A stretch of DNA of 64,000 bases. Source: Candidatus Aldehydirespirator sp. Lineage in GTDB: Bacteria; Actinomycetota; Acidimicrobiia; Acidimicrobiales; Aldehydirespiratoraceae. The position numbers were made by a program, and so were the translations under genes. The stretch spans positions 2,956,322-3,020,321 of the forward strand of contig OZ241894.1 in assembly GCA_965203575.1 (NCBI GenBank), in the 5' to 3' direction. The notes under the pieces were generated by a model. That model searched no databases and was not told the origin of the DNA. It saw only the letters and a list, made by a program, of their open reading frames with translations. How positions within the stretch are numbered: position 1 is the stretch's first letter; each line of letters starts with the position of its first letter. Shown here piece by piece: positions 22,774-53,535 of the stretch.

Positions 22774-22810
22774 GAGGTCGAGCGGGGCGGGTCGCGGTTC
22801 GGGCGGATCA

Positions 22811-32422: not shown

Positions 32423-32562
32423 GAAGAGACTCTACGTCGCCGTCACGATTGCTACAACTTTTCTACAAGATATTTTCAACTTATCTGAAAACAAACTGCG
32501 ACTGCCTACTATCCGGACATCGCCGCCGAGGACCTGCTCGACGGCTGCCGGCCCCGACGCTG

Positions 32563-34776
32563 TCACACGCAGGACAGCGGGCCCAGGGCAGTGGCAGCGC
32601 CGGTGACGTTGAACTCCATGCCCTCAGCGTTGCCGACTGTGCTTCCGGGGATGACGGTGAGATACAGCGTGCCCGCTTGGGTGGTTGCCAGCCTGGAAGC
32701 GAGCGACGACCGCTCCGACGCCCACACCGCGCTGTCCGGGTCCTCGTTACTCCACCAGTCGTTCTCAGTCACGGGCGTTGACATCGCCGGGGCGATGCGC
32801 CACCTGACTGTTGAACGGTCGTATGTGAAATCGTTGAAGATCAAGAACGGTGTGATCACGAAGACAGCGTCGTTTCCGGACGCTCCACGGGTGCCGCACC
32901 TGATGACCAACACCGGTGGTTCTTGCCAGTCGTAAGCTCCGTATGCCCTGCCTTGAACGAACGCGACCACGTAGGAACCGTCTATGTTCTCACCTGACTG
33001 CGTGTTCCATTCGCCCCCTGTCGACTGGCCGAACGGCCTGGGCGGAGCATTCGTGGGCCAGTCGCATGAATGCCTCAAGAACGAGACAGCGTCTTCCACG
33101 CCACGCAACGAGAACTCTGAGCGGATGGCTAGCCGCTCCCTGTGGTCCTGCCCCTCAAAGACGAGCCTGTCCGCTCGTCGCAGCGGTGAGGTGAAACCTC
33201 GAGCGTGGCCGTCAACGGCGACGGAATGGGCGCCGTCTTGGCTCACCCACCAGTTCCTCTCGGTCTCGGTGCCTCCATCGAACGAGTACACGACTTGGAC
33301 TCGGCCATCGGCGTTCCCTCTCACCGGCAGGCCGCCCCACCAGACTCCCAGCCAGTAAGGAGTCTGAAGGTTGGTGGAAGAGCAGGACAGGTACAGGTAC
33401 GGCTCCCAGTCGCAGCCGTCCATCAAGGCGTCGTCATGGTCGGTGATGGTGTACTTGTCGGTCCACAGATATGCAGACCCGCCGTCCGAGTCCCTGTGAT
33501 GCCACCATCCTCCGGTGCCCTCAGTCCATCCAGGCTCATCGACGGTTCCTGGCTCTTCACCGAAGCACTCAACCCACGATAAGCCGCCGGATACTCTCGA
33601 CGGTCCTCCGGTCGTGATCCGGGGCATCCGCTCGGTGAGGGTCGATGAAGCTATGGCGTACGAGATGCCCTCAACGTCCAGGTGGACCAACTTGGCGACG
33701 ACCATGCCCACGACTCTGCCGCATGAGTCCAGCAGCGGTCCTCCGCTGTTGCCCGGGGACACGGCTGCGTCGGTGACGATCAAGGTGCCCAGATCATCGT
33801 CCTCATCAATGCGTGACACCACGCCGCGCGTGATTGACGCACTGGATCCGTGACCGAGCGGGAACCCGACGGCGTAGACGGTGTCGCCCGGTTCGATGTC
33901 GGACATTCTCCCGAACTGCATGACCGGTATGCCCTGCCCACTGGCTTGAAGAAGCGCCACATCAGCCGCCAGATCCCCGCCGAGTATGGAAGCGTCCCTG
34001 CTGATGTCTCCCAGAGCGAGCCTCACTTCAGTGCTGTTCTGCACGACATGGGCCGCTGTCAGCCATCTCTGCCCGCCCACATAGAATGCCGAGCCGGTCC
34101 CGCCGCCGGTGTCGACGCGCCAGACAGCCTTCGTCGCTTGGGAGGACGAGAACACACATTCACCCGTGCCGACCTGAGAATCGTCAGGATCCTCGCCTGG
34201 CGGTGCAGTCCTCCACCCGGGCAGGGATCCGTCCGGCAGAGGCACCTGATCGAAGTAGCCCAGACCCGCCAAACAGTTCAACGCGTCTCGCTTGAAACTG
34301 CTCTCAGAAGAGAGGTCCACGAATCGGTCAGCCGACGCGCAGCCACTCAACGCAGCACGGCCCCCGGGCATCTCGTCACGCACGAACTTGTAGGTGAGCA
34401 CACCGAACCAGCCTTTGGAGAGCCTCTGGTCCGGATGGAACAACCTGCCCTGACTGGGTGACCCGCTGGGCGCGGGCACTTCGTCGAAGTAACCCATGTC
34501 CGCCAGACAGTTCAAGGCGTCTCGCTTGAACTGAGACTCATCGCCCAAGTCATCGAAGCTGTTGGACTGGTCGCACTCGCTGAGCGCTGCGGCACCGCCC
34601 GGCATCTCGTCACGCACGAACTTGTAGGTGAGCACTCCGAACCAGCCTTTGGAGAGCCTCTGGTCCGGATGGAAGAATTCGCTCGTCACCGCAGCCGCTG
34701 AAACGGGTACGACGCTCAACGTGACGATCGCGACAAGAACGGTGACCTTCACCGAGAGCTTCAAGAATGAGGCCAT
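32563..34776 (-). CDS. Secreted multidomain trypsin-like (S1/HtrA-type) serine protease
   Basis: 737-aa ORF with signal peptide MASFLKLSVKVTVLVAIVTLSVVPVSAAA. Two ~78-aa SLH-like repeats. Protease core motifs TAAHVV (His), DVALL (Asp) and GNSGGPL (Ser). About 330-aa C-terminal region with two related Trp-rich, Cys-bracketed modules. Confidence 0.8.
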   Translation of the reverse strand: MASFLKLSVKVTVLVAIVTLSVVPVSAAAVTSEFFHPDQRLSKGWFGVLTYKFVRDEMPGGAAALSECDQSNSFDDLGDESQFKRDALNCLADMGYFDEVPAPSGSPSQGRLFHPDQRLSKGWFGVLTYKFVRDEMPGGRAALSGCASADRFVDLSSESSFKRDALNCLAGLGYFDQVPLPDGSLPGWRTAPPGEDPDDSQVGTGECVFSSSQATKAVWRVDTGGGTGSAFYVGGQRWLTAAHVVQNSTEVRLALGDISRDASILGGDLAADVALLQASGQGIPVMQFGRMSDIEPGDTVYAVGFPLGHGSSASITRGVVSRIDEDDDLGTLIVTDAAVSPGNSGGPLLDSCGRVVGMVVAKLVHLDVEGISYAIASSTLTERMPRITTGGPSRVSGGLSWVECFGEEPGTVDEPGWTEGTGGWWHHRDSDGGSAYLWTDKYTITDHDDALMDGCDWEPYLYLSCSSTNLQTPYWLGVWWGGLPVRGNADGRVQVVYSFDGGTETERNWWVSQDGAHSVAVDGHARGFTSPLRRADRLVFEGQDHRERLAIRSEFSLRGVEDAVSFLRHSCDWPTNAPPRPFGQSTGGEWNTQSGENIDGSYVVAFVQGRAYGAYDWQEPPVLVIRCGTRGASGNDAVFVITPFLIFNDFTYDRSTVRWRIAPAMSTPVTENDWWSNEDPDSAVWASERSSLASRLATTQAGTLYLTVIPGSTVGNAEGMEFNVTGAATALGPLSCV

Positions 34777-34855
34777 CAGATCGAGCGAGCAACGGGCACG
34801 CCACCCAGTCTAAGTCCGCACGCTGGATCGGCTGTTGTGAGGGACGGCGAACTGC

Positions 34856-34889
34856 GGACGGGATCGCCGACCCCTGGTCCGTGCCGAGT
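34856..34889 (+). repeat. Right copy of the 34-bp imperfect direct repeat
   Basis: See 30709..30742. Confidence 0.9.
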
Positions 34890-34894
34890 TGCGC

Positions 34895-35350
34895 TCAACT
34901 GTGGTTGATCGGAGCCACGCCCTTGAGCTTCAGAAGCAGCCATCGACCGAGCTTCAACCACGGGTAGCCCAGACGCGCGGCCACCGGGGAATTGAACGCC
35001 AGCCGGTTGATCCTGTTGAACACGCCGCGGCTCTCGGCGAGGAGCGCAAGCTCGTTGAGCGCCTCGTGACCGACGTAGTAGCGCCCGTCCACTATTGCGA
35101 CCATGCCGTCGTTGAGATCGTGCGGCAGGCCGCGAACCTCCTCCACGACCGGACCGCCCTGGCGAGCATCGATGAGGGTGAGTTCCTTGACCGACTGCTT
35201 GAGCCTCAGGAATTGGGCGTAGTTGCTGCACAACGGGCACTCGCCGTCATAGACCAACCGAATCTGGTCGACCCGCCCGCGCTGGTCCGCCGATCGGAGG
35301 CGCTTCACCGCGCGGAAGGGTATACCAATGATCGGCAGGGACTGCATCAA
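34895..35350 (-). CDS. DCC-family (DUF393) thiol-disulfide oxidoreductase
   Basis: 151-aa ORF with the family motif YDGECPLCSNY. Confidence 0.8.
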   Translation of the reverse strand: MMQSLPIIGIPFRAVKRLRSADQRGRVDQIRLVYDGECPLCSNYAQFLRLKQSVKELTLIDARQGGPVVEEVRGLPHDLNDGMVAIVDGRYYVGHEALNELALLAESRGVFNRINRLAFNSPVAARLGYPWLKLGRWLLLKLKGVAPINHS

Positions 35351-35394
35351 CGCTATCCGCCAGGCAGTTCAAGGCTAGTGCTGTGCGGATCGTC

Positions 35395-38376
35395 CTAGGG
35401 CGGGGATATCCCGGCAAAGCCCAGGTCGAGGCCGTCGCGCGTCTCGCTGGCTCGGCCCAGGAAGTGGCTGTCGTCGACGGTCCAGGTGTGCTCGTCGCCG
35501 TGTCGCACCCGCAGGTATCCGGCACCGTGGGTCCAGTAGATCCTGCCTCCCACCGCGGCGACGTCTTGGGCGAGGGCGATGTCGACCCGGCGCGGCACGC
35601 GGCGCCAGCCGCCCGCGGCGCCGAGATCGTGCCGTGCGATGATCAGCACGCCCCCGGACACGCCGACGAACGGTATGAAGCGTTCCGAGAACCTCTGACG
35701 GTGGGCGTCTCGCACCGTCTTATCGAGTCTCGCCAGGTACACGTACTCGGCTGACTTCCCCACCAACTCGGCCCGGGAGTACTCGTGGGCCAGCACCAGG
35801 TCCCAGACGTGCTCGCGGGCATAGAAGTCGTCGTCGTCCATCTTGGTGAGCAGCGTGCCCGAGGATGCTTCGACGGCCGCGTTGAGAACGGCCCCGAGAG
35901 GCCTGTCGGCATCCACTCGCACCACTTGCACCGGATGCTGCAGGGTGCCGGTGAGCGCGGCGATCTCCGAGTCGCCGCCGAAGCCGTCACCGTGGAGGGC
36001 AAGAACCAGCTCCAGGCGCGGATAGGTCTGGGACCGCACGGTGTCGATGACCTCGCCCAGTCTCTCGGGCCGCCTCGTGGGCGCGAGGATGGAGACCTCC
36101 GGCCCGGGAGCGTCCATGCCCGTCGCGTCCAGAATCTGTCGGGCGCGGCTTCGCAGCGAGTGGTCCCGCAGCGCGCAGCGCCGCATGGCGATGCTCAACA
36201 GCTCCCGCTCATGGGCGGAGGCACGCGCCAAGGCCGGGCCGGCCAGCAGGTCGTGCAGCTGCTCGCCGAGGCACTCCTTCAGGTCGGCGTCGGGATCGGG
36301 AACGCTGACCAGGACGCCGGCCGCGGCCAGAGCGGCCAGAGTCGCCGCCCGCTGCTGGGCGCTCCGGTGGAATGTCGCCCGATCCTCTAGGTGGTGCAGG
36401 GAACGCAGCTCGTCCAGAAGGTCTCCGCCGATCCGATGGCTGAAGATCCCGCGCCCGGCGGGGGGAAGCTGCGAGCGCAGCGTCGCGGATGCGGGCTCGT
36501 GAGCCGCCGACCACCCGATGGGGTTCACCGCCTCGGCGTCGAATGCCTGAACGGAGAGTCGGGGACTCAGCTCGTCCAGCACCGCCACCGCCGGGCGGGA
36601 GTGGGCGGTCGGCCTGCTCGCGACCGAGAGCGCCGCTGGGGGTGAGTCGACCAGCACGACGTCCACATGGTGGTCGCCGGCTGAGGAGGTCACCCTGGCC
36701 GATGCCGCCAGCACGGCCGACGCGACCCTCCCGGAGGCAGTTATCTCGGCCCCGAGCGGGTAGCGGGCCAGTCGAGGGACGTAACGGCGGCTCCTGGCCT
36801 GCAGGCCCAGCCAGATCTTGAGACGCTTACGAACCCGCCGCAACCTCCAGCGGACATTCCGGAGGCGCCACCAGACGGCGCGGACGATCATGGCCGCGAG
36901 CCGCCCCACATCCGGAAGGCTGCGGATCCGTAGCGCGGTTCCGAACACGGTCGTTACATGCCGCCGGAATCGAGTCCAGACTCCCAACAGAGCCTTGACG
37001 GGTCCACGCAGCCGAGCAGCCAGCCGACTCTGGGGTTGCGGTTCCTGGATGACCCTGAGCGAGTCCACATCCAACTCGACGACACTTCCGACATCGGATA
37101 AGGCCAGGTTGCAGCGTCGGGCCCGATTGAGTGCCCAGGCCCTGGTGATGGTGACCCGGTGTCCCGAGGCGAGGTCGGACTGACCCGAGGCGGCCTCTCC
37201 GAGCTGCTGGCGCAACCGCCCGATCATCCTGGGCGTTACCTCGGCACCGGCGGGAACCGTGGCGAAGAACGCGGCTGCCGGATGGGCCCGCGCCGCGCCT
37301 CCGGCCGCCCCGACTTCTATCCGCGGGTCCGGGTCGAGCAGCCGGTGGAGCCTCTCCAAGCGCTCCGTTGGACGCTCCTCGACCCAGACGAACAGGTCGT
37401 GCACGTCGCTCGCCAGGACCTGCTCGACGGTCGTCAGGATGACGTCGGACTCAGCGTGGCCCGGGTCCACCGCCACCACGACCTGCGGAACCGTGAAGGA
37501 CCGTCCCGGCGCGGCGCAGCGCAGCCGCCGGTCGGGGATGAGATGCGACACCTTGTCGCGCTGCTGGTCCAGGCTGGCGGTCTCGCTCTCAGTAAGGGCA
37601 GCGCCGGGACCCTGGTGCCAGCACAGGGCGCCGCGCTCGGGGGCCAGCACCGCTCCGAGGGCGTAGGCCCGCCATCCGAACTCGATGTCCTCGGCCCCCC
37701 ACTGCGTGAACGACTCGTCGAACATTCCCACCTCGGCGAAGAACGCGGCCGACACGCCGAAGTTCCCGCTGGTGACGACCCTGAAGATGTCGTCGGAGCC
37801 GTCTGTGAGGTCGTCGGTGCGAGCCATCCGGCGCTCTATCCATTCGGGGCGCTGCACCGGTCGCTCTGCGAGGAGCTCCTCGAGAGAGCCGGGCCGGCCC
37901 CTGACCGCGCCGGCGTCGATGCCTTCGAAGTCGACGTGCCGGCGGAACCCGAGAGTCACGACATCGCAGGCCGCGTGGTGCCAGCGGGCGTGGGAGGCCA
38001 GCCATCCGGCTTCGGGCACCATGTCGCAGTCGAGGAACACGAGGATGTCTCCGTTCGCCGCTCGTGCTCCGTTGTTCCGGGCTCGAGCCGCCCCGAAGCC
38101 GAGGTCCTCCTGGTGGATCACCCGCACCCGCGACGATGTCGGCCGGCCCAGCTCCAGCGGCGGGTCCGAGCCGTCGTCCACCACGACCACCTCGAAGAGT
38201 TCCCGCGGGTAGGTCTGAGCCTCGAGCCCGGCGAGTGTGAGGGCCAGCTCCTCGGGCGCCTCGAAGTAGGGGATCACGACGGTGACGGCCATGCCGGGCT
38301 CGAAGAGCTCGACCGGCGCGACCGGCAGCGAGCGCCAGTCGTTTCCGCGCACTCCTGCGGGAGGCGGGGCGGTCAT
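35395..38376 (-). CDS. Large (~993 aa) dual-GT2 glycosyltransferase, putative glycopolymer synthase (paralog A)
   Basis: ORF 35395..39057(-) trimmed to ATG 38376..38374, which overlaps the upstream stop (ATGA). N-terminal GT2 motifs VVIPYFEAPE, VVVDDGSDPP, LDCDM and QWGAEDIEFGWR. C-terminal GT2 motifs SILAPTRRPE, SQTYPRLELV and TKMDDDDFY. Confidence 0.8.
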   Translation of the reverse strand: MTAPPPAGVRGNDWRSLPVAPVELFEPGMAVTVVIPYFEAPEELALTLAGLEAQTYPRELFEVVVVDDGSDPPLELGRPTSSRVRVIHQEDLGFGAARARNNGARAANGDILVFLDCDMVPEAGWLASHARWHHAACDVVTLGFRRHVDFEGIDAGAVRGRPGSLEELLAERPVQRPEWIERRMARTDDLTDGSDDIFRVVTSGNFGVSAAFFAEVGMFDESFTQWGAEDIEFGWRAYALGAVLAPERGALCWHQGPGAALTESETASLDQQRDKVSHLIPDRRLRCAAPGRSFTVPQVVVAVDPGHAESDVILTTVEQVLASDVHDLFVWVEERPTERLERLHRLLDPDPRIEVGAAGGAARAHPAAAFFATVPAGAEVTPRMIGRLRQQLGEAASGQSDLASGHRVTITRAWALNRARRCNLALSDVGSVVELDVDSLRVIQEPQPQSRLAARLRGPVKALLGVWTRFRRHVTTVFGTALRIRSLPDVGRLAAMIVRAVWWRLRNVRWRLRRVRKRLKIWLGLQARSRRYVPRLARYPLGAEITASGRVASAVLAASARVTSSAGDHHVDVVLVDSPPAALSVASRPTAHSRPAVAVLDELSPRLSVQAFDAEAVNPIGWSAAHEPASATLRSQLPPAGRGIFSHRIGGDLLDELRSLHHLEDRATFHRSAQQRAATLAALAAAGVLVSVPDPDADLKECLGEQLHDLLAGPALARASAHERELLSIAMRRCALRDHSLRSRARQILDATGMDAPGPEVSILAPTRRPERLGEVIDTVRSQTYPRLELVLALHGDGFGGDSEIAALTGTLQHPVQVVRVDADRPLGAVLNAAVEASSGTLLTKMDDDDFYAREHVWDLVLAHEYSRAELVGKSAEYVYLARLDKTVRDAHRQRFSERFIPFVGVSGGVLIIARHDLGAAGGWRRVPRRVDIALAQDVAAVGGRIYWTHGAGYLRVRHGDEHTWTVDDSHFLGRASETRDGLDLGFAGISPP

Positions 38377-39752
38377 CCGTCCGCGCCCGATGACTCGCTG
38401 TGCGGCGCGGCTGCGGCCGATGGCTCCGCGGCGGCAGGGGCCGGTCTGAGAGCAGCGGCCATCAGCAGCACCCAGATGTAGGAGAACCATAGGACGAAGC
38501 TCTCCGTGAGGTTCTCCACGATCAGGAAGGTTACGAGGGCGGCGCCGAACCATGTGTCGGGGCCGGGGCGCCGCCACAGGGCCGAGCCGGCGTTGCGGGC
38601 GGCCAGCAGGACGATCACCGTGAACGGCACCGCGCCCAGCAGCCCCAGTCCCAGGCCCACCTCGACGAGGCTGCTGTGGGCGCTGCCCCGGCGCAGGAGC
38701 GCGTGCTGGGTCAACTCCTCGATGTCCCAGAACGTGAAGAAGCCGTGCCCGAGCACCGGGCGTTGCACGATCCGGTCCCACACCAGGCCCCATATCTCGC
38801 GCCGCTGGCTGAACGTGGGCACGTCCCACTGCACGGCTACTGCCGCGACCGTGGCCGTGGTGGTCAGGGCCGCCGTCGTGACCGTCACTGTCCTGGCCGT
38901 AGCGGCGCGGCAACGTCGGCTGAGCCAGGGGTGAGACCCGACCACGGTTGCAGCCGTGGCCGCAACCGCCAGCGAGATCCATGCAGTGCGACTTCCGGCG
39001 CCGGCGAGCACTGCGACTGCCACGGCCGCACCGCCTGCCGCGGCGACGCGTCGCCAACCTGGGGACGCCAGCAGGTAACGGACGCTGACCAGGACTCCGA
39101 CCGCGGCCAGCGGTGCGAGCGAGTTGCGGTTGGTGTAGACGCCCTTCCAGTTGCCGTCAGGATCGAGTCCCAAATCGGGGCGCAGCCATACCAGGAGGAG
39201 GCTTGCTGCCACGGCGGCGCCCGCGACCGCAGACAACACCGCGGCCGTCTCGTCGTAGTCGAAGCCGGCGACCGCCCAGGCCAACAGGGCCATGCCCGCA
39301 TAGACGGACGAGCGCCACGCCGTGGCCGCGGGATCGACGCTCCACAGCGTGGACGCCACCGCGGCCAACGTGAAGCAGCCCACTGCGGCCACCGCAACCC
39401 GCGAGGAACGATCCCGCGGCCGGCCGGTGGCGCCCAGCACCCGGCGTGCGGCCAGGACCGCCCCGCACATCGCGGCTGCAGCCAGCACCGGCCAGACCGC
39501 GTGGTCCTCCCATCGGCCGGTGCGATCCAGCACACGCTTGGAGAACAGCAGAACCGGGCCGTTGGTGAAGACGAGCAGAGCCCCGGCGGCGACCGCCGCG
39601 GCCCCCCAGTGAAATGAGGTGGTGCTCCCGGAGGTCTCGGACGGTGTCGCCCGGCGGGATGAGGCGTCCCGCCCGGCAGCTTCAGGCGACGCCGGCGAAG
39701 CGGAGGTCGCAGCCGTCGTGAACCTCGGCGGCCTGCTCCAGGAAATACTCAT
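38373..39752 (-). CDS. O-antigen ligase/polymerase-like (Wzy_C family) polytopic membrane protein
   Basis: ORF 38373..39839(-) with motifs GVYTNRNSLA, GSRTAW and a periplasmic-loop HSSLVEVGLGLG. The start is uncertain: in-frame ATGs at 39839, 39782 and 39752 all lie inside the upstream gene's 3' end, and there is no ATG downstream of 39682 before the first TM helix. Confidence 0.65.
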   Translation of the reverse strand: MSISWSRPPRFTTAATSASPASPEAAGRDASSRRATPSETSGSTTSFHWGAAAVAAGALLVFTNGPVLLFSKRVLDRTGRWEDHAVWPVLAAAAMCGAVLAARRVLGATGRPRDRSSRVAVAAVGCFTLAAVASTLWSVDPAATAWRSSVYAGMALLAWAVAGFDYDETAAVLSAVAGAAVAASLLLVWLRPDLGLDPDGNWKGVYTNRNSLAPLAAVGVLVSVRYLLASPGWRRVAAAGGAAVAVAVLAGAGSRTAWISLAVAATAATVVGSHPWLSRRCRAATARTVTVTTAALTTTATVAAVAVQWDVPTFSQRREIWGLVWDRIVQRPVLGHGFFTFWDIEELTQHALLRRGSAHSSLVEVGLGLGLLGAVPFTVIVLLAARNAGSALWRRPGPDTWFGAALVTFLIVENLTESFVLWFSYIWVLLMAAALRPAPAAAEPSAAAAPHSESSGADG

Positions 39753-42700
39753 CGTCGGCCTCCCAGGTGTGTCCGCCAGCATGCCGCACCAGCAGGTAGC
39801 CGCGTCCGTGGGTGCGGTAGAGGCGGCCCCCGCCGGCAACGACGTCGTCCATGAGCGCCTGGTCGACGCCGGAGGGCACCGGCTGCCATCCCACCACCGC
39901 GTCGATGTCGCGGCGCGCGATGATCATCGCGCCGCCTGCCAGCGTCAGCTTCGACCCGAAGCGCTCGGCGCTGCCGCGGAACCGGCGAAGGGTGCGGTCC
40001 GCTCCCTCCAGGTACACATACTCGGCCGCCTTGCCGACCAGTGTGGCCCCGGAGTACTCGTGAGCCAGCACCAAGTCCCATACGTGCTCCGGTCCGTAAT
40101 AGTCGTCGTCGTCGAACTTGGTGACCAACTCTCCCCGGCTGTGATCCAGCGCCTCATTGAGCACCTCCCCCAGCACGCGTCCGGCGGGCACGGCCAGCAC
40201 GCGGGCGTCCGGGCCGCTGCCGGCGGCCAGCGCCTCGAGCCGGGCGCGGTCGAAGCCGTCGCCGTGCGCGGCCAGCACCAGTTCGATGCGAGGGTAGGTC
40301 TGGGCTGCCACCGAAGCGACGGCATCAGCCACCCGGTCGGGCCGGCGGGTGGCCAGCAGCACCGACACCCGGGGCAGGGGTTCCACGTCGACTGACGCGG
40401 CTTCGCACACCTGACGGGCTCGAGCTCGCAGCGAGTGCGTGCGGAGCGCCTCACGTCGCATCTCTACGCTCAAGGCCTCGCGCTCAGCCTCCGGGGCTGT
40501 CTCGATGCGAGGATCGGTGAGAAGGGCGAAGAGCCTCTCGCCCAGCAGTCCGGCCACCTCGACGCCGCCGTCGGCGAGGCGGACCATTGCGCCGCTGGCC
40601 GCCAGCGCCGCCACCGCGCCCGCCCTGGCCTGCGCGTTGGCGTGATACGCGGCCACATCGTCCAGGTGGTGGTAGCGGCGTGCTCTCACGAAGTCGGCGG
40701 CGTCCACCTTCCTGGAGGTGGTGTGCCCGATCGGCAGCGCCTTCCTGGGTCCGAGAGCGGCTGCCCGCCTCAAGGGCGCGGGCCAGTGGGCGGGGTTGAC
40801 CTGCTCGGCGTCGAAGGCGGGCGTGGCTGCGGTCGGTTCCATGCCGCGCAGCGAGATCACCGCCGCACCGGCCCTGGGGGTCCATGTGCTCGGGAGGGGC
40901 CAGTCATCGCACAGCACGATCTGGGCGGGGGCCGAGGACTCGACGTGGAGCCTCATCCAGGCGGAGAACACAGCCGCCGACCGCGGGCCGCACGCTGCCA
41001 TGGACGGACCGAGGCGGTATGTGGCCGGCCGGATCGTCCTCGAGCGAGGCCGCCCTCTGGAACCTCTGCGTACTCGCAATGCGGCTCTGCGCACCCGCCA
41101 CGCGGCCCTTCGCACTAGCAGCGCAACCCTGCGGTAGCGCCAGACGATCCATCTCAGGCGCCAGCCCGCGGCCCGGACGATCCACGCGCCGACGGTGCGC
41201 GCCAGCCGTGCGGCGTCACGCGGGCGGCGCACTAAGCGTGCCTCGGTAGCGGTGTAGGCGGCGATGCGTCCCAGCTTCCGCAGCCTGGGCAGACGCCCGC
41301 CGTACGCGGCGCGCGCCGGTTCCCGGATCACCGCCGGAGTGTTCTTGGGCACACTCCCGGTGTCTTTGGGGCCGCGTCGTGGTGGGGCCGGCTCGTCCGG
41401 CACATCCGGCTCGTCGAGTTGTCGCGGCGCAGCAGCCGGGTCTGTCGACGCGCCATCCGCGAGCGGGGGCACGTCCGCAGCCACCTTGGCGTCGCCTTGG
41501 AGGCTCGACCCGGGGGTGGGGGTCAACGCCGCCCGGTGCCGCAGCAGCCTTGACGCCAGCGTGTCCGCGGTGATCGATTCTTCGTCGAGCCCCAGGCGCA
41601 GTTCGCGGTGCAGCCTCCTGGCCCTCACCAGCATGGCGACGCTTCCGTCGCGCTGAGACGCAGTGGCCCACTCCGCAGTGCCCAACTGCTTGCGGAGCCC
41701 GGACACCAGGTCGGCGGCGACGGGTGTGCCGGCCTGCACGAAGATGTGGAACTGTGATGCGGGGAACGCGCCCGGCGCGCCGCCCCGCGGGCCGAGTCGA
41801 ACCCTCGGGTCGCCCCCGAGGAGGCGTCTGACGATCTCGGCCGCGTGAGCCTCCTCCTCGCCGTCCGGCTGCCCCTGCTCGATCCAGACGACCAGGTCGT
41901 GGACATCGCCCCCCAGGAGGCTCTCGACGGTGTCGAGCAGGGCGTCGGTTCCGGCCCCGCCGTTAGCGACGCTGACCACGTACTGGGGGACGGTGAAGCT
42001 GCGGCCCGGCTTGGCTCCTCTGAAGCCGTGGTGGGCGATCAACTGCGACAGCTTGGCCCGCTGCTGTTCAAGGCTGTGCGCCTCCGCGACGCTGGGCGTG
42101 GCGCCTTCGCCCTGGTGCCAGCACAGCGCCCGGCGCTCGGGAACGAGAAGCGCGCCGAGCGTGAAGGCCCGGTAGCCGAATTCGACATCCTCAGCGCCCC
42201 ACTGGGTGAACGACTCGTCGTTGCCTCCGACCTCCCAGTAGAAGTCGCGCGACATGCCGAGATTCCCGCCCGAGGCCACGCGGAAAAGGTCGTCGTGATC
42301 CGAGGTCAACTCGGCGGTGCGGGTCATGTGGGACTCGATCCATTCGGGCCGGTCCCAGGGCCGGCCGGCGAACATCTCGTCGAGCGTTCCGCTGAAGGTG
42401 CGCACATCGCCGGCCGAGACGCCGGTGACGTCCAGGTGACGACGGAAGCCGATCGACATGGCGTCGCTGGCGGCGTGGTGCCACTGGGCGTGGGCTGCCA
42501 GCCACTCCTTGGCGGGAATCATGTCGCAATCGAGGAAGACGACGATGTCCCCTTGAGCGGCGCGGGCGCCGTTGTTGCGGGCGCGGGCCAGGCCGAACCC
42601 GAGGTCGGGCTGATGGATCACACTGACGTTCAGCGGCGACGGCTCGGACATCGCCAACGGCGGGTCCGACCCGTCGTCCACCACGATCACCTCGAAGAGG

Positions 42701-42927
42701 TGACGCGGGTAGCTCTGGCGCTCCAGACCGGCCAGGGTGAGGGACAGCGCGTCCGGCGCTTGATAGTAGGGAACCACCACCGTGGCCCGCAGGCAGGGCT
42801 CGAACCTCTCCAGGGGGGTAGTGGCGAGGGATTTCCAGTCGTTGCCCTCGACTATCGCCGGCTTCGGCGTGAGGGGTGCCGCGGGCACGGCGGCGGCGCC
42901 TTCGCCGCTCCCGGCGGGATCAGTCAT
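39682..42927 (-). CDS. Large (1081 aa) dual-GT2 glycosyltransferase, putative glycopolymer synthase (paralog B)
   Basis: Colinear with paralog A. N-terminal motifs VVVPYYQAPD, IVVDDGSDPP, LDCDM and QWGAEDVEFGYR. C-terminal motifs SVLLATRRPD, AQTYPRIELV and TKFDDDDYY. Confidence 0.8.
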   Translation of the reverse strand: MTDPAGSGEGAAAVPAAPLTPKPAIVEGNDWKSLATTPLERFEPCLRATVVVPYYQAPDALSLTLAGLERQSYPRHLFEVIVVDDGSDPPLAMSEPSPLNVSVIHQPDLGFGLARARNNGARAAQGDIVVFLDCDMIPAKEWLAAHAQWHHAASDAMSIGFRRHLDVTGVSAGDVRTFSGTLDEMFAGRPWDRPEWIESHMTRTAELTSDHDDLFRVASGGNLGMSRDFYWEVGGNDESFTQWGAEDVEFGYRAFTLGALLVPERRALCWHQGEGATPSVAEAHSLEQQRAKLSQLIAHHGFRGAKPGRSFTVPQYVVSVANGGAGTDALLDTVESLLGGDVHDLVVWIEQGQPDGEEEAHAAEIVRRLLGGDPRVRLGPRGGAPGAFPASQFHIFVQAGTPVAADLVSGLRKQLGTAEWATASQRDGSVAMLVRARRLHRELRLGLDEESITADTLASRLLRHRAALTPTPGSSLQGDAKVAADVPPLADGASTDPAAAPRQLDEPDVPDEPAPPRRGPKDTGSVPKNTPAVIREPARAAYGGRLPRLRKLGRIAAYTATEARLVRRPRDAARLARTVGAWIVRAAGWRLRWIVWRYRRVALLVRRAAWRVRRAALRVRRGSRGRPRSRTIRPATYRLGPSMAACGPRSAAVFSAWMRLHVESSAPAQIVLCDDWPLPSTWTPRAGAAVISLRGMEPTAATPAFDAEQVNPAHWPAPLRRAAALGPRKALPIGHTTSRKVDAADFVRARRYHHLDDVAAYHANAQARAGAVAALAASGAMVRLADGGVEVAGLLGERLFALLTDPRIETAPEAEREALSVEMRREALRTHSLRARARQVCEAASVDVEPLPRVSVLLATRRPDRVADAVASVAAQTYPRIELVLAAHGDGFDRARLEALAAGSGPDARVLAVPAGRVLGEVLNEALDHSRGELVTKFDDDDYYGPEHVWDLVLAHEYSGATLVGKAAEYVYLEGADRTLRRFRGSAERFGSKLTLAGGAMIIARRDIDAVVGWQPVPSGVDQALMDDVVAGGGRLYRTHGRGYLLVRHAGGHTWEADDEYFLEQAAEVHDGCDLRFAGVA

Positions 42928-43177: not shown

Positions 43178-44005
43178 GTGAGCGATCCCGACCAGCAGTT
43201 GGTCGACCTAACGCAGCCCTCCCCGCCCGCCGCCTATCTCCGGGAGGTCTGGCGGAGACGGGACTTCGCCATCCTGGTCCCCGTCCAGGACCTTCGGGCC
43301 CAGAACATGGGCTCTGTGTTGGGCCAACTCTGGCATCTGCTCAACCCGGCGCTGATGGTCGCGGTCTACTTCCTGATCTTCGGACTGATCCTCGACACCA
43401 GCCGCGGCGTGGACAACTTCCTGGGCTTCCTCGTCGTCGGGGTGGTCTGGTTCCATCTCACGCAGCGGGTCGTGCAGGACGCCGCGGTGTCCATCCCCCG
43501 CAATCTGGGACTGATCCGGTCCGTGCAGTTCCCGCGGATCCTGCTGCCGGCGGCAGCCGTCATCGGCCAGACCGCCGCGTTCGTGCCCGCGCTCGTGTTG
43601 GCGCTGGCAGCAGTGATCGCCACCGGCGAACGTCCTTCGCTGCGGTGGCTGGCGCTGATCGGGGTGCTGGCCGCGCAGTTCGTGTTCAACTTCGGGGCAG
43701 CGCTTCTGGTGGCCCGCATCGGGGCGGCTGTGCCGGATGTGCGCCAGTTGCTGCCGCACGTGTTCAGGCTGCTGTTCTACGCCTCGGGCGTGATCTTCAG
43801 CGTCGATGCGTTCGTCACGAGCGAGTCCTGGCGGCGGGTGTTCGCCCTGAACCCGCTCTACGACGTGATCACCTGCGCCCGATGGTGCCTGCTCGGTGAA
43901 CCGGCCGACTCTTGGGCGGTGGCTGGAATGCTGGCGTGGGGCGCCGCGCTGCTGGTGGCCGGATTCGCGGTCTTCTGGAGATCCGACCAGCGGCTGGGGG
44001 CGTGA
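43178..44005 (+). CDS. ABC-2-type polysaccharide/teichoic-acid exporter permease (Wzm/TagG-like)
   Basis: ORF 43103..44005(+), probably starting at GTG 43178. Has the YLREVWRRRDFAILV N-terminal motif typical of ABC-2 permeases and 6 TM segments. Confidence 0.8.
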   Translation: MSDPDQQLVDLTQPSPPAAYLREVWRRRDFAILVPVQDLRAQNMGSVLGQLWHLLNPALMVAVYFLIFGLILDTSRGVDNFLGFLVVGVVWFHLTQRVVQDAAVSIPRNLGLIRSVQFPRILLPAAAVIGQTAAFVPALVLALAAVIATGERPSLRWLALIGVLAAQFVFNFGAALLVARIGAAVPDVRQLLPHVFRLLFYASGVIFSVDAFVTSESWRRVFALNPLYDVITCARWCLLGEPADSWAVAGMLAWGAALLVAGFAVFWRSDQRLGA

Positions 44006-44751
44006 TGGCTGCCGGTCGGGCTGTCACGGTGCGCGTGGACGATGCCCACGTCTACTACCGGGTGTACGAGGATCCGGCTGCGGGTATCAAGCAACTGTTC
44101 TCGAGCGGGCGGACCGGACGGCGTTACCAGACGATCCGGGCGGTGCGTGGCGTGAGCCTGGATCTCCACGAGTCCGAGACATTGGGCCTCATCGGGGCCA
44201 ACGGGTCGGGCAAGTCGACGCTATTGGCGGCCATGACCGGGCTGCTGCCGCTGGCATCCGGCACGATCCTAGGCCGGAGCAGGCCGTCGCTGCTGGGAGT
44301 GTCTGCCGCGCTGCGCTCTGCTCTCTCCGGCAGACGAAACATCCTGATCGGTGGGCTTGCCCTGGGCTTCACCCGAGCCGAGGTGGAGAGCCGCATGGAC
44401 GAGATCATCGACTTCGCCGGACTCCGCAACGCCATAGACCGGCCGTTGCGCACCTACTCGTCGGGGATGAGGGCTCGGCTGAACTTCGCGATCGCCACCG
44501 CCCGGATCCCCGACATCCTGTTGATCGACGAGGCGCTGTCCGTAGGGGACGAGGGTTTCCGGGCCCGCAGCGCCGAGCGCATCGACGAGGTGCGCTCGGC
44601 GGCCGGCTCCGTGGTTCTGGTGTCGCACAACATGGCGGAGATCGAGGGGTCCTGTGACCGCGTGGCATGGCTCGACGCTGGCACTCTTCGGGCGGTGGGT
44701 GAGCCGGGTGACGTCGTCGCCGCCTATCTGGCCTCCGACGCGGTGCGCTGA
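44005..44751 (+). CDS. ABC polysaccharide exporter ATP-binding protein (Wzt/TagH-like, short form)
   Basis: ATG 44005 overlaps the permease stop TGA 44003..44005. Walker A GANGSGKST, signature YSSGMRARL, Walker B LLIDEAL. No C-terminal carbohydrate-binding extension. Confidence 0.85.
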   Translation: MAAGRAVTVRVDDAHVYYRVYEDPAAGIKQLFSSGRTGRRYQTIRAVRGVSLDLHESETLGLIGANGSGKSTLLAAMTGLLPLASGTILGRSRPSLLGVSAALRSALSGRRNILIGGLALGFTRAEVESRMDEIIDFAGLRNAIDRPLRTYSSGMRARLNFAIATARIPDILLIDEALSVGDEGFRARSAERIDEVRSAAGSVVLVSHNMAEIEGSCDRVAWLDAGTLRAVGEPGDVVAAYLASDAVR

Positions 44752-45746
44752 TCCGGCCGCCGGCCGCGGCTGGTCCGGCCCGCCAGGAATCCCGCGCCCC
44801 AACAGATGTGCATCACCGCGAAGGCGGCTGCGGCCCGGGCCCGGTCGAGCCCGTCCCCCAGCGAGTCGCGCAGGCGGGTGGCGGCCACCGCGCAGGCCGC
44901 GGCATACAGCACCGGCAGGGCCGCGCCCCGCCAGCGTCCCAGGGCCAGTCCGAGCGCGGAGCACGCCAGACCAGCGGCCAGCGCGGGAGCGGCCAGCTGG
45001 CGGATGCGGAGCGACCGGGGATTGCGCACCAGCATGGTGCGCTTCCATGCGCCGTACGAGAAGTACTGGCGGGCGAGCCCCCGGTAGTCGGAGCGGGGCA
45101 CGTAGTCGACCACGAGGCTCGGATCGAGCCACACGGTGTGGCCCTGCTCGCGCAGCCGCCAGTTGAGCTCGTAGTCCTGGTTGCGTCCCAGGGTCTCGTC
45201 GAAGCCGCCGACGGACGCCAGCGCGTCGCGGCTGAACACGCCCAGATAGACGGTGTCGGCCGGTCCCGAGTGCCGGCCCCGGCGGAAGGCCGCAGGACCG
45301 CCGCCGAAGGCCGACCCCATCGCGGCCGCGATGGCGCCGGTCAGGTCGGCGTCGCCGACGGGGCGCTGCACACCGCCCACATTGGCTGCACCGGTGCGGG
45401 TCAGCGTGGACACGGCCCGTTCCAGGTAGTCGGGTGGGATCCGTGATTGAGCGTCTACCCGGGCCACGACGGTGCCCTTGGATGCTGCCACCGCAATGTT
45501 GAGGCCCGCCGCGGCGGTGCCCGCGGGATTCTCGACAACTTGCAGGGGCAGCCCGATGCAGCTACCGGCCAGTATCTGCTCGGTACCGTCGTGGCTGGGT
45601 CCAACCGCCACGGTCACGTCGATCGGCCCCCGATATGTCTGCGAACCGATAGCCGAGAGGCACTCCGGTATCAGCGCCGCGCAGTCCCGGGCCGGTACCA
45701 CCACCGAGATGTGCGGCAGGCGGTCATGGGCCCCTTCGGTGTTCAC
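44724..45746 (-). CDS. GT2-family glycosyltransferase with C-terminal TM segments
   Basis: 340-aa ORF with GTG start overlapping the upstream stop (GTGA). Motifs ISVVVPARD and RVDAQS, plus QDYELNWR. Confidence 0.8.
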   Translation of the reverse strand: MNTEGAHDRLPHISVVVPARDCAALIPECLSAIGSQTYRGPIDVTVAVGPSHDGTEQILAGSCIGLPLQVVENPAGTAAAGLNIAVAASKGTVVARVDAQSRIPPDYLERAVSTLTRTGAANVGGVQRPVGDADLTGAIAAAMGSAFGGGPAAFRRGRHSGPADTVYLGVFSRDALASVGGFDETLGRNQDYELNWRLREQGHTVWLDPSLVVDYVPRSDYRGLARQYFSYGAWKRTMLVRNPRSLRIRQLAAPALAAGLACSALGLALGRWRGAALPVLYAAACAVAATRLRDSLGDGLDRARAAAAFAVMHICWGAGFLAGRTSRGRRPDQRTASEAR

Positions 45747-47059
45747 CGGCCGGACCCTCGGGCCATCACGAGGAGGCTCTTCACCATGATCTCCCAGTCG
45801 AGCAACGGCGACCAGTTCACAACGTATTGCAGATCGTGACCGAGCTTGTAGGCGGCGTCCGTCTGGTAGTGACCCTGAGTCTGAGCCAGACCGGTTATGC
45901 CGGGAGGGATGTCGTGACGCCGGCCGTATCCGGCGATCTGCTCCTCGAGTCGGGCCACCAGCGCCGGTCGCTCGGCCCGGGGCCCGACCAGCGACATCTG
46001 ACCGGTGAGGACATTCCAGAGTTGCGGCAGCTCATCGAGCCGGCTCTGCCGGAGCCAGGCCACACCGGCGATCACCCTGGGATCGTCGGCGACGGCCAAC
46101 TCCGGCCCGGCCTGCTCGGCGTCCGGCGTCATGGTCCGGAACTTCACCATGACGAACGTCCGGCCCTCCATGCCCACCCGTTCCTGGCGGTAGAGCACGC
46201 CCCGACCCGCCCGCAGGCGCACATAGAGGGCGACTGCGAGCGTCAGCGGTATCGCGAACGGAGCCAGCACCAGCAGGTAGACGAGGTCGAGGAGGCGCTT
46301 GAACCGCAGCCGGCACGCGGGCAGGGCATGGGCTCGCAGCGCGACGAAGGGCATGCCGCCGATCTGGCGGGTGCGCTGAAGTCCCAGCAGGGTGTCGGAC
46401 GGCGTGATGCGCCGGTAGACCCCCACCTGGCGTCCCTCCAGCTCGGCGAGCGGCTCGGGATAGATGATGTCCAGCGACTGGCGCGACAGCAGCAGCAGAT
46501 CGGTGGCGGCGCACCGGTCCACCTCTGCGGCGACGTCGGAGAACGTGCCAGCCTGGCCGGCGATCTCGGTGGCCTGCCTCGACTCGGCCAGATGGCGCCG
46601 CGCCGAGTCCACATCGGCGGCGTCTCCCACCAGCAGCACGCGGGGACGCCCGAAACGGCGCATCCTCACTTGCCGGGCCAGCCAGCGGTTGAACGACACC
46701 ACGAGGCTCGCGGCCACGGCCAGGATCACGAGGTTGGCCCTGGGCATCAGGTAGCGGCCGCTGAGCAGCGACACGGTGGCGTCGGCCCCCACTGCCAGCA
46801 GGGTCAGCATCGTGGCTCGCGGCAGCCAGGGAGGCCGGCCGAGCCGCTGCTCGTACTCGTAGAGGCCGCCGAAGTAGTAGACGGCCATGTGCAGGCCGGT
46901 TGCCACCGCGAAGCCGACCGCATAGTGCGACAGCGGGTAGGTCGGCCAGTCGAGCCCGAAGCGGACCGTTGTGATCGCGACCATGAGCCCGAAGAGCGTG
47001 GTCGCGTCGATCAGGTACAGATAGCGGAATCCCAGTCTTCGCAGGAAGCCGGTCCTCAC
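45743..47059 (-). CDS. Polyprenyl-phosphate sugar-1-phosphate transferase (WbaP/ExoY bacterial sugar transferase family), priming enzyme
   Basis: ORF 45743..47641(-) trimmed to GTG 47059..47057, which overlaps the upstream stop (GTGA). N-terminal TM block and C-terminal catalytic motifs KFRTM and DELPQLWNVLTGQMSLVGPRAERP. Confidence 0.85.
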   Translation of the reverse strand: MRTGFLRRLGFRYLYLIDATTLFGLMVAITTVRFGLDWPTYPLSHYAVGFAVATGLHMAVYYFGGLYEYEQRLGRPPWLPRATMLTLLAVGADATVSLLSGRYLMPRANLVILAVAASLVVSFNRWLARQVRMRRFGRPRVLLVGDAADVDSARRHLAESRQATEIAGQAGTFSDVAAEVDRCAATDLLLLSRQSLDIIYPEPLAELEGRQVGVYRRITPSDTLLGLQRTRQIGGMPFVALRAHALPACRLRFKRLLDLVYLLVLAPFAIPLTLAVALYVRLRAGRGVLYRQERVGMEGRTFVMVKFRTMTPDAEQAGPELAVADDPRVIAGVAWLRQSRLDELPQLWNVLTGQMSLVGPRAERPALVARLEEQIAGYGRRHDIPPGITGLAQTQGHYQTDAAYKLGHDLQYVVNWSPLLDWEIMVKSLLVMARGSGR

Positions 47060-52728: not shown

Positions 52729-52791
52729 GCCCCGGCGTTCATCGGGTCACCCTAGCCCTGGCGTTCACCGCAAAACTCTAGACTGTGGCCC

Positions 52792-53535
52792 GTGAGCGCC
52801 TCGGACGGCTGCCTGTCGGTGGTAATGCCCTGCTACAACGAGGTCGCCACCATCGACGAGATCGTCTCCAGGGTGCTTGCCAGCCGCTTCACCGGCGAGC
52901 TGATAGTGGTGGACGACGGTTCGACCGACGGAACGCGCCGTCGGCTGTCCCAATACGACGATCCCCGGGTGAGGGTCCTGCCGCAGCCCGAGAACCGCGG
53001 GAAGGGCGCCGCGGTGCGGCGGGGCTTCGTCGAGGCGAGCCGTGAATTCGTGGTGATCCAGGACGCCGACCTTGAGTACGACCCCGGCGACTGGGAGGCG
53101 CTGCTGGCGCCTCTGGCGCGCGGCGACGCCGACGTGGTGTACGGGACCCGTATGCAGGAAGGCCCGGAGCACAGGGTGCCGTACTACTGGGCCATGATCT
53201 GCAACCGGATGCTGACACGACTGTCGAACATGCTCACCGGTCTGTGGCTGACCGATGTGGCGACCTGCTACAAGGCGTTCCGCCTCGAGGTCGTGCGGTC
53301 CCTCGACCTGCGCGAGAACCGCTTCGGGATCGACACGGAGATCACCGCGAAGGTGGCCGCCGGAGGTTGGCGCATCTGGGAGACCGGCATCTCCTACACG
53401 AGCAGGAACTACGCTGAAGGCAAGAAGATCACATGGAAGGACGGCATCGCCGTCTTCGTGTGCATCGTTCGCTACGGGGTCTCCGTACGCCTTCGCCCGT
53501 TGGTCCAATCGGCGAGGACTTCGAGAATCTCCTGA
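52792..53535 (+). CDS. GT2 polyprenyl-phosphate sugar synthase-like glycosyltransferase (DPM1/GtrB/ArnC-like)
   Basis: 247-aa ORF with GTG start. Motifs VVMPCYNE, VVDDGSTDGT and QDADLEYDP. Confidence 0.8.
   Translation: MSASDGCLSVVMPCYNEVATIDEIVSRVLASRFTGELIVVDDGSTDGTRRRLSQYDDPRVRVLPQPENRGKGAAVRRGFVEASREFVVIQDADLEYDPGDWEALLAPLARGDADVVYGTRMQEGPEHRVPYYWAMICNRMLTRLSNMLTGLWLTDVATCYKAFRLEVVRSLDLRENRFGIDTEITAKVAAGGWRIWETGISYTSRNYAEGKKITWKDGIAVFVCIVRYGVSVRLRPLVQSARTSRIS

Follow-up and report, generated by a model that had tools for sequence, protein, structure and literature searches.

Multi-domain glycosyltransferases at the core of a probable cell-envelope glycan locus in Candidatus Aldehydirespirator

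Which glycan pathway is encoded where two paralogous proteins, each bearing a family 2 glycosyltransferase (GT2) domain near either end, flank a Wzy_C-family membrane protein and stand opposite an ATP-binding cassette (ABC) exporter? This question is raised by a 64,000-nucleotide stretch of DNA (hereafter the window) from Candidatus Aldehydirespirator sp. (contig OZ241894.1), the G+C content of which is about 70%. A first-pass annotation held that such a mixture of dual glycosyltransferases, exporter and Wzy_C protein lies beyond textbook pathways. We do not share this opinion, since a Wzy_C ligase is the normal last step both in ABC-dependent O-antigen and in Gram-positive S-layer-glycan routes. 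These genes are probably the core of a ~25-kb hypervariable cell-envelope glycan locus with ABC-transporter-dependent logic, where a polyprenol-linked glycan would be synthesised in the cytoplasm, exported by Wzm/Wzt and ligated by the Wzy_C protein. The logic of the pathway is known; what is new is the family of dual enzymes.

Dual glycosyltransferases and the protein encoded between them

All three genes are read from the minus strand. Paralog A (1081 aa) occupies positions 39682–42927 and paralog B (993 aa), which is the more widely conserved type, positions 35395–38376, with the gene of the polytopic Wzy_C-family protein, similar to WaaL and O-oligosaccharyltransferases, between them (38373–39752). 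In BLASTP comparison the two paralogs were colinear, with 56% identity over residues 21–447 (E = 6e-144) and 46% over residues 622–1081 (E = 1e-97), the region between these parts being divergent. The Pfam family Glycos_transf_2 (PF00535) matched two stretches in each protein, and the isolated C-terminal ~257 aa scored 44.0 and 35.2 bits at a cut-off of 23.3. Together with the GT-A fold matches found by Foldseek and described below, these scores agree with the initial assignment of the C-terminal halves to glycosyltransferases and rule out that they are something else. The motifs quoted at first reading (DDGSDPP, LDCDM, QWGAED(V/I)EFG, TRRP(D/E), QTYPR(I/L)ELV and TK(F/M)DDDD(Y/F)Y) are all present in the translations and turned out to be invariant or nearly so in 52 homologs, with DCD and DDDD fully invariant. 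The separation of the GT2 domains was also seen correctly, though its length, estimated at about 400 aa, was not: the domains lie ~470 aa apart in paralog B and ~570 aa apart in paralog A, and the central 445–524 residues find no match in Pfam. By their motifs both paralogs are predicted to carry two catalytically intact GT-A domains each, that is, up to four linkage specificities jointly.

In both paralogs the only domains recognised by Pfam and NCBIfam are of the GT2 type, and a terminator module such as a kinase, a methyltransferase or a Kdo transferase was not found; in NCBIfam nothing exceeded the cut-off, every glycosyltransferase match being far under the threshold. The dual enzymes are cytoplasmic and have no transmembrane segments: neither contains a strong hydrophobic segment, the hydrophobic windows are weak (≤1.5), and AlphaFold2 models show soluble domains.

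The protein encoded between them matched Pfam Wzy_C (PF04932) with 44.1 bits (cut-off 31.7) at residues 218–353 of a 435-aa translation and possesses ~10–11 hydrophobic segments, in agreement with the ten or more counted previously. Its stop codon overlaps the start of paralog B in an ATGA at 38373–38376, so the junction described there is real. The start is uncertain. No start codon occurs from 39681 to 39534; ATG 39752 gives a protein of 459 aa whose gene shares 71 nt with that of paralog A and which retains the first transmembrane segment LLVFTNGPVLLFSK, conserved in homologs which do not follow a dual-glycosyltransferase gene, and the automatic gene call of the identical public contig picked ATG 39470 (365 aa). 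Residues R255, R317/R318, R331, H350, R355, H359 and E364, as well as the H359-x10-G370 context, are kept at ≥95% in 38 homologs with 43–87% identity. Most of the conserved residues belong to a 57-residue loop (308–364) between hydrophobic segments, and R255 follows the preceding segment. PF04932 spans WaaL ligases and PglL-type O-oligosaccharyltransferases, which have a common catalytic Arg/Arg/His in the motif (PMC3643930), and the conserved Arg/Arg/His found here were matched to R215/R288/H338 of WaaL (PMC3643930) by motif position, not by structural alignment. Neither of the flanking motifs, PglL_A or PglL_B, was reported, Wzy_C being the sole Pfam family at E ≤ 0.01, so that it does not belong to the PglL-type enzymes of proteobacteria. 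The H-x10-G context of the conserved His is typical of WaaL.

A scan of one genome per species yielded 72 loci of this family (numbered L001 onward), all in metagenome-assembled genomes (MAGs). The exact order of dual glycosyltransferase, Wzy_C and dual glycosyltransferase recurs in seven of them (L001–L006 and L009), which are the closest relatives and have proteins identical to paralog A by 79–83% and to paralog B by 88–91%. The trio thus exists as a unit elsewhere, and its uniqueness to this genome is ruled out.

Proposed pathway and the machinery around it

Transcription of the exporter genes diverges from the glycosyltransferase operon. Both lie on the plus strand and form the ABC-2 permease/ATPase pair that had been placed from 43178 onward: Wzm (43178–44005; 275 aa with 6 hydrophobic segments) scored 36.3 bits with Pfam ABC2_membrane (cut-off 26.9), and Wzt (44005–44751) scored 74.6 bits with ABC_tran, which is the sole domain in its 248 aa, no C-terminal carbohydrate-binding domain being found. 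In NCBIfam they come closest to models of galactan and teichoic-acid ABC exporters, all under cut-off.

Upstream of the dual enzymes a second minus-strand operon, joined by GTGA overlaps, encodes a secreted protein with SpoIID and SLH domains (47056–49035; 659 aa), a polyprenyl-phosphate glycosyl-1-phosphate transferase of the Bac_transf family, the presumed priming enzyme (45743–47059; 438 aa, 185.2 bits in Pfam), and a single-domain GT2, a candidate adaptor glycosyltransferase (44724–45746; 340 aa). The primer reached 290 bits with NCBIfam TIGR03025, slightly short of the 295.55 cut-off. One GTGA joins the start of the 340-aa GT2 with the primer stop, and the other couples translationally the primer start, GTG 47059, with the stop of the SpoIID-SLH gene, which is kept beside the primer in 40 of the 72 loci. 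The longest ORF (open reading frame) of the primer (632 aa from ATG 47641) shares ~585 nt with the SpoIID-SLH gene in another frame; since distant homologs align only from residue ~180–200 and automatic gene calling predicts 438 aa, GTG 47059 is the true start.

Further along the window, a polytopic GT-C-like protein (51094–52746, minus strand; 550 aa, 8 hydrophobic segments) has a weak match to PMT_2, and its homolog stands directly upstream of a dual glycosyltransferase in many related loci. NCBIfam gave no match either for it or for the Wzy_C protein. Divergent from its gene is that of a 259-aa GT2 (52756–53535, plus strand), the best NCBIfam matches of which, AglJ, PpgS and dolichyl-P-hexose transferase, all below cut-off, are of the polyprenyl-phosphate-sugar synthase type. 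A candidate LytR-CpsA-Psr (LCP) ligase, of the kind joining glycopolymers to peptidoglycan, is encoded at 57860–59584 (plus strand). Between the synthase-like GT2 and the biotin ligase and LCP genes there is a 374-aa ORF (54620–55744, minus strand) with 7 hydrophobic segments and no Pfam match, which could belong to the glycan machinery as one more membrane component.

For this set of proteins we infer the substrates, the order in which the enzymes act, the role of the ligase and its acceptor. Polyprenyl phosphate would be primed by the Bac_transf enzyme and supplied with an adaptor sugar by the 340-aa GT2, after which the chain would be extended at the cytoplasmic face by the two paralogous multi-module glycosyltransferases. 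The finished lipid-linked glycan would then be exported by Wzm/Wzt, and the Wzy_C protein, acting like WaaL or WsaB, would take the chain off the lipid carrier and pass it en bloc to a final acceptor, which may be a protein, a lipid or another glycan. Outside the membrane the GT-C-like protein and the polyprenyl-P-sugar synthase would probably decorate the glycan, and the LCP enzyme may join the polymer to peptidoglycan.

Similar chains of events are known in other bacteria. An O-antigen exported by WzmWzt is ligated by WaaL (PMC6379404). Gram-positive S-layer glycan clusters comprise a WbaP-like primer WsaP, multi-domain glycosyltransferases, Wzm/Wzt and the Wzy_C-domain transferase WsaB (PMC2943079), and the slg clusters of Geobacillus stearothermophilus NRS 2004/3a and Paenibacillus alvei (WsaP/WsfP, WsaC-F, Wzm/Wzt, WsaB/WsfB) show the same module set in a monoderm host (PMC2943079). 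They differ from the locus described here in the architecture of their glycosyltransferases, which is unrelated; besides, there is no rml or S-layer structural gene in this window and no tetratricopeptide-repeat (TPR) partner was detected for the Wzy_C protein, whereas an SLH-domain protein shares the primer operon, and GT-C-like and LCP genes are additionally near. With the rhamnose-rich wall polysaccharide loci of lactococci, streptococci and enterococci the common features are a variable Gram-positive wall-glycan locus, a backbone exported by an ABC transporter, decoration outside the cytoplasm by GT-C enzymes that a polyprenyl-P-sugar synthase supplies, and LCP ligation (PMC9574508, PMC7831098). 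Unlike them, the locus has no rhamnose genes or Rgp-type glycosyltransferases, its backbone enzymes belonging to the new dual family, and a Wzy_C-family protein is present in place of WpsI/WpsJ-type GT-C enzymes.

True hybrids, combining an ABC-dependent backbone with Wzx/Wzy-like and GT-C steps, exist in Gram-positives (PMC9574508), and a hybrid organisation has to be considered here too. In this case the Wzy_C protein would be a Wzy-type polymerase which, together with a MOP/Wzx-like flippase and the Bac_transf enzyme, serves a second, repeat-unit glycan, the dual glycosyltransferases and Wzm/Wzt make a separate backbone, and the chains are joined outside by the GT-C-like or the LCP enzyme, the genes of both being present. 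A suitable flippase may be seen in the MOP-superfamily protein encoded at 29425–30699 (plus strand; 424 aa, 10 hydrophobic segments, weak Polysacc_synt match), the gene of which is a conserved border of the variable locus adjoining ThiF. In 33 of the 35 loci with this protein Wzy_C is present as well, Bac_transf primers are typical of Wzy-dependent routes (PMC2943079), and a precedent is given by the rhamnose-rich wall polysaccharides of lactococci and enterococci (PMC9574508). However, this co-occurrence comes through shared synteny, so that the association may be just phylogenetic, and the MOP gene is far more conserved (65–94% identity) than the variable glycan genes. Only one single-domain glycosyltransferase is at hand to build a repeat unit, and the conserved His stands in the WaaL-like H-x10-G context. 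Finally, the Wzy_C gene is coupled between two genes of cytoplasmic multi-module glycosyltransferases and is accompanied by Wzm in 35 of 36 loci, and scanning of ORFs across the window revealed no Wzz/PCP co-polymerase. For these last three reasons we favour a ligase rather than a polymerase as the predicted function of the Wzy_C protein and regard the hybrid organisation as unlikely.

ABC-dependent synthesis with Wzy_C ligation also has its weak points. With the MOP protein at the border a Wzx/Wzy route may operate, Pfam Wzy_C matches some Wzy polymerases as well, and a PDB sequence search with the Wzy_C protein gave no relative. The LCP ligase could already perform wall attachment, which makes the role of the Wzy_C protein less certain, and in half of the related loci Wzy_C is missing within 10 kb, so that it is not obligatory for the dual enzymes. 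The GT-C assignment depends on a Pfam match of 22.7 bits, below the 26.1 cut-off of PMT_2. Sequence permits no deduction of sugar, linkage or acceptor, and Acidimicrobiia, being Gram-positive by lineage, have no lipid A-core acceptor. A protein or wall-polymer acceptor is plausible, since an SLH-domain protein is encoded with the primer.

Five-part architecture and the helical spacer

What distinguishes the dual family is a chain of five parts, in which the active GT-A domains are separated from each other by a degenerate domain, a variable repeat-built spacer and a domain without structural match. These parts were delineated on an AlphaFold2 model of paralog B for which 52 sequences were used (mean predicted local distance difference test score, pLDDT, 78) and on a separate model of residues 536–993 (pLDDT 84, predicted template modelling score 0.85). 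The first GT-A domain (GT-A #1, residues 28–290; 37507–38295 on the minus strand, as for all parts) has invariant DDGS, DCD and WGxED and is similar to the first of the two GT-A domains of K4CP chondroitin polymerase. It is followed by a small alpha/beta Rossmann-like domain (299–434; 37075–37482), recognised by secondary structure and conservation, the strand order of which is like the beginning of a GT-A, with the fourth strand leading into PAGA, not DXD; this domain is probably non-catalytic. Two long Arg/Trp-rich helices (449–481 and 487–529; 36790–37032) form the spacer of variable length, and behind them a conserved alpha/beta and helical domain (536–755; 36112–36771) packs with the second GT-A domain (GT-A #2, 760–993; 35398–36099), where TRRP, QTYP, K-x-DDDD-x-Y and HTW are invariant. 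Residues 536–755 have no Pfam match, and Foldseek with the C-terminal half gave no clear PDB fold match for them. Paralog A has the layout of GT-A #1 (~47–290), a linker of ~190 aa composed of an acidic/Pro-rich segment and then Arg/Trp-rich helices, a middle domain and GT-A #2 (~850–1081).

Foldseek comparison of the paralog B model with PDB put K4CP chondroitin polymerase on top (E = 2e-27), followed by polypeptide N-acetylgalactosamine (GalNAc) transferases and heparosan synthase 2. The alignment with K4CP covers ~511–552 columns of its ~600-residue chain, which is longer than GT-A #1 alone, and is consistent with the small domain of the model occupying the place of the second GT-A of K4CP. 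By sequence only dual-enzyme residues 49–273 match K4CP (its residues 95–331; phmmer, E = 2.9e-27). K4CP is a single polypeptide with two GT-A catalytic domains alternating transfer of GalNAc and glucuronic acid (PMC13411425). The earlier comparison with glycosaminoglycan synthases therefore stood for the N-terminal module (N-module), which is similar to K4CP in sequence and fold, including the DGS, DCD and WGxED motifs, but not for adjacency of the active domains. As in K4CP (KfoC) and the Pasteurella synthases, two DXD-bearing GT-A domains belong to one polypeptide; where K4CP has its second catalytic domain, however, a truncated domain devoid of DXD follows GT-A #1, and the second active GT-A, generically GT2-like, lies ~470–570 aa downstream. 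A polyprenol primer and a Wzm/Wzt exporter are also found here instead of the KpsMT capsule system. One more parallel is that the window contains a gene for UDP-sugar 6-dehydrogenase (UDP-glucose/GDP-mannose dehydrogenase family), which together with those of a nucleotidyltransferase and an NDP-sugar epimerase/dehydratase comes after the LCP gene (59439–63955, plus strand). A uronic-acid-forming enzyme near a K4CP-like glycosyltransferase hints, as a speculation, at an acidic polymer resembling glycosaminoglycan or teichuronic acid.

The model of the C-terminal half found its Foldseek matches (CgT 5hea, 6p61, TarS, WrtF, RmlT, SpsA) through the GT-A only, over ~210–250 columns, so GT-A #2 has a generic GT2 fold; for paralog B, a PDB sequence search with the middle and C-terminal part found nothing beyond weak GT2 matches (E from 0.006 to 0.02). 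When sub-domains were compared with one another by hhalign, nothing significant indicated that the small or the middle domain is a degenerate GT-A, although on these narrow alignments the test was underpowered, as even GT-A #1 against GT-A #2 obtained just 13% probability. Among 1.84 billion representatives the C-terminal half matched 664 clusters (proteins clustered at 50% identity) with E ≤ 1e-30, and many of the matches are proteins of 450–680 aa sharing only the helical subdomain and GT-A #2. Those checked included one Actinomadura MAG “GT2 family protein” and some fusions to an FkbM methyltransferase or Glyco_trans_1_2 domain. Thus, judging by sequence similarity, the C-terminal module (C-module) belongs to a wider, unnamed GT2 subfamily, and it is the full five-part architecture that characterises the family of Acidimicrobiia MAGs.

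The most changeable part of the enzymes is the linker. From the last conserved residue of the N-module to the start of the C-module it measures 104–226 aa in 52 homologs (115 in paralog B, 190 in paralog A), contains 18–33% of Arg and Lys, and includes Trp. In both paralogs the helical hydrophobic moment peaks in the spacer, at 0.66–0.73 against a protein mean of 0.23–0.25 (standard deviation 0.13), and the net charge there climbs to between +8 and +9 in 18 residues. In the paralog B model the helices are 33 and 43 residues long. Internal tandem repeats are detectable in 48 of 122 family members, with periods of 18 (26 proteins), 7 (9), 11 (7) and 14 (1) residues, so that 43 of the 48 correspond to whole helix turns; the few remaining periods are mostly in the acidic/Pro-rich or Lys-rich segment ahead of the helices. 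At least 11 unrelated unit sequences are used, in 2 to 7.1 copies, the number of which changes among close relatives, and every unit examined places basic residues on one face and small or apolar ones on the other. In paralog A itself a 21-bp repeat of 2.9 copies was found by Tandem Repeats Finder (41064–41124, minus strand), which encodes heptads LLVRRAA / WRVRRAA / LRVRRGS of the Arg-rich spacer (protein period 7, residues 599–621). Three Candidatus Poriferisodalis genomes (L023, L025, L049) share one near-perfect 54-bp DNA repeat, in 3.3, 5.2 and 6.2 copies with 99–100% match, and units of 60 bp occur in L036 and L041; such near-perfect repeats point to recent change. Dual-enzyme genes as a whole are not enriched in tandem repeats (47 of 215 repeats, the genes making up 21% of the DNA); what is distinctive about their repeats is the linker position and the period.

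One could see in this region a low-complexity, fast-evolving linker devoid of function, varying by neutral slippage. Its length and sequence are indeed little conserved, and the model is of low confidence there, with pLDDT of 60–70 in the helices and under 50 around them. Yet neutral slippage hardly agrees with the prevalence of periods of 7, 11, 14 or 18 residues among the 48 repeats, with the same basic and apolar faces preserved in all units examined although their sequences are unrelated, or with the fact that stand-alone C-modules of other loci retain the last helix, their matches beginning at paralog B residue ~481–537. We consider a functionless linker very improbable and, for the reasons just given, interpret these data as a sign that selection maintains an uninterrupted cationic amphipathic helix, the length of which can be adjusted.

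Such a helix may be a membrane anchor and/or a ruler between the catalytic modules. The first possibility fits a protein without transmembrane segments, which the helix would hold at the inner, anionic side of the membrane, the site of the polyprenol-linked acceptor. The second would fit by analogy with the spacers of WbdD and WbbB. Among coiled-coil enzymes of ABC-dependent O-antigen assembly, WbdD/WbdA of E. coli O9a, WbbB of K. pneumoniae O12 and ORF6 of K. pneumoniae O7 are likewise large cytoplasmic proteins with an extended helical region between catalytic modules (PMC11231755, PMC3482155); their polymerase modules are also variably fused or stand-alone, and Wzm/Wzt export is followed by ligation (PMC6379404). 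In our case, by contrast, GT-A domains stand at both ends of the spacer, which is strongly cationic, contains Trp and consists of recent tandem repeats. Both the absence of a recognisable terminator domain (kinase, methyltransferase or Kdo transferase) in the dual enzymes and that of the Wzt domain reading a terminal cap speak against a strict WbbB-type ruler. We therefore put forward only tentatively, as a rather doubtful possibility, that the Arg/Trp-rich helices are a genetically tunable molecular ruler fixing the distance between modules or from module to membrane and hence the length of the glycan chain.

A variable locus at a fixed chromosomal site

Paralog A has at least 493 homologs with E ≤ 1e-10, and the named ones are annotated as “glycosyltransferase” of Acidimicrobiaceae, Acidimicrobiia or Candidatus Poriferisodalis. 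The 72 loci belong nearly all to Acidimicrobiia, namely to Candidatus Aldehydirespirator, Candidatus Poriferisodalis and Candidatus Spongiisocius/Spongiisociaceae or to genomes labelled only as Acidimicrobiales, Acidimicrobiaceae or Acidimicrobiia, and many bear Candidatus names of sponge symbionts. Aldehydirespiratoraceae and Poriferisodalaceae fall in clades each pairing a sponge-symbiotic with a free-living lineage (PMC11706023); in the literature one paper names the genus Aldehydirespirator and nothing was found on these genes. The outlying labels are one Dehalococcoidia and one Rhodospirillales. On the Dehalococcoidia-labelled MAG (L020, OZ243977.1, 5858–15610) two giant ORFs of 1890 and 1320 aa contain five successive copies of the N-module, the C-module being joined to the last copy only, and the Rhodospirillales-labelled contig (L021) carries a full-length family member. 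These occurrences could reflect horizontal transfer within the same habitat or binning errors.

Mapping of the window proteins on the 72 loci showed that the locus occupies a fixed chromosomal site and is modular, with hypervariable content. In Aldehydirespirator-type genomes the site is flanked by the SpoIID-SLH/primer/GT2/Wzt/Wzm genes on one side and by the MOP gene and ThiF on the other. Apart from the trio the arrangements include a dual glycosyltransferase followed by a stand-alone C-module, Wzy_C, a GT-C-like gene and another dual glycosyltransferase; Wzy_C with one or two dual glycosyltransferases after it; a stand-alone C-module with Wzy_C and a dual glycosyltransferase; and, in Spongiisociaceae, two dual glycosyltransferases with GT-C-like genes and without Wzy_C. 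Within the fetched stretches Wzy_C was registered in 36 of the 72 loci (35 of them also with Wzm), Wzm or Wzt in 52, GT-C-like proteins in 53 and the primer in 45.

On a neighbour-joining tree of 114 C-modules paralogs A and B fall into deeply separated clades out of at least 8. The B-type is widespread, with orthologs of 64–71% identity in Poriferisodalis and other genomes, and the A-type is restricted to the closest relatives. It follows that the duplication is old, and the loci combine members of different clades, as serotype loci do. The same diversification, with 1–3 copies of the dual enzyme per locus plus stand-alone C-modules, bears on whether these enzymes polymerise at all. Each domain might instead add a single residue once, giving a short non-repetitive oligosaccharide such as a protein O-glycan or a linkage unit; repetitive action is not proven by sequence, and multi-domain glycosyltransferases that add a fixed number of residues do exist, for example adaptor-forming enzymes (PMC2943079, PMC11231755). 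Against this stand the serotype-like shuffling of modules, the ABC-2 Wzm/Wzt exporters, typical of long polymers, and the fact that the closest solved relative of the N-module is a polymerase, so single additions have in our estimation a very small chance of being the true mode of action, and chain extension by the dual enzymes is retained in the pathway proposed above.

The ThiF-family protein of the border (28187–29347, plus strand) is 87–99% identical in relatives and has an N-terminal rhodanese domain (26–110) ahead of the ThiF domain (129–360). In actinobacterial MoeZ-type proteins rhodanese is C-terminal, so that the domain order looks reversed. Between this border and paralog B the DNA from 30779 to 35368 is of lower GC content (0.64–0.65 against ~0.70) and encodes a protein with Schlafen/AlbA_2, HATPase_c_4 and HTH domains, partly similar in PADLOC to pAgo-associated proteins, a 737-aa Trypsin_2 protein with a protease domain resembling the PADLOC “RT-Protease” models, and a DCC1-like thiol-disulfide oxidoreductase. 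For the first two, none of the 72 related loci offers a full-length counterpart at the same position, the trypsin-like protein finding only short, weak matches in L001; the DCC1-like gene comes after a dual glycosyltransferase in 8 of the 72. This segment has the appearance of DNA inserted at the margin of the glycan locus. The remainder of the window consists of housekeeping genes, and no tRNA gene is present in its 64 kb. Other genes recorded there encode an AAA_14 and DUF4143 protein (11931–13220, minus strand) with a very strong PADLOC match to the candidate defence family PDC-S01 (E = 2.9e-141), an apparent LipB-LipA fusion of 584 aa that joins LplA-B_cat with LIAS_N and Radical_SAM near genes of 2-oxoacid dehydrogenase E2 and E3 (18078–19832, plus strand), and the non-homologous end-joining pair of Ku and a protein with the LigD primase-polymerase domain (21826–23728, plus strand).

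The dual-glycosyltransferase family is uncharacterised. NCBIfam offers no curated model for it, Pfam models leave about half of its length uncovered, and solved relatives exist for the N-terminal domain only. In Acidimicrobiia MAGs, many of which bear the names of sponge symbionts, it is the dominant part of a hypervariable surface-glycan locus; there is no cultivated representative, and surface glycans are likely interfaces with host and phage. The wider C-module marks a sizeable unstudied GT2 subfamily with at least one member from another actinobacterium, the Actinomadura MAG mentioned above. If the spacer is indeed a ruler, slippage of its repeats would provide fast heritable variation of glycan length beside the change of composition by module shuffling, with host recognition or phage evasion inside sponges as plausible uses, and the WbdD/WbbB principle would reach a Gram-positive lineage, with a cationic repeat spacer and neither a recognisable terminator nor a cap-reading Wzt. 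Repeat number should in this case correlate with chain length or membrane association, and confirmation of such a correlation would mean that control over chain length can evolve by simple expansion of repeats.

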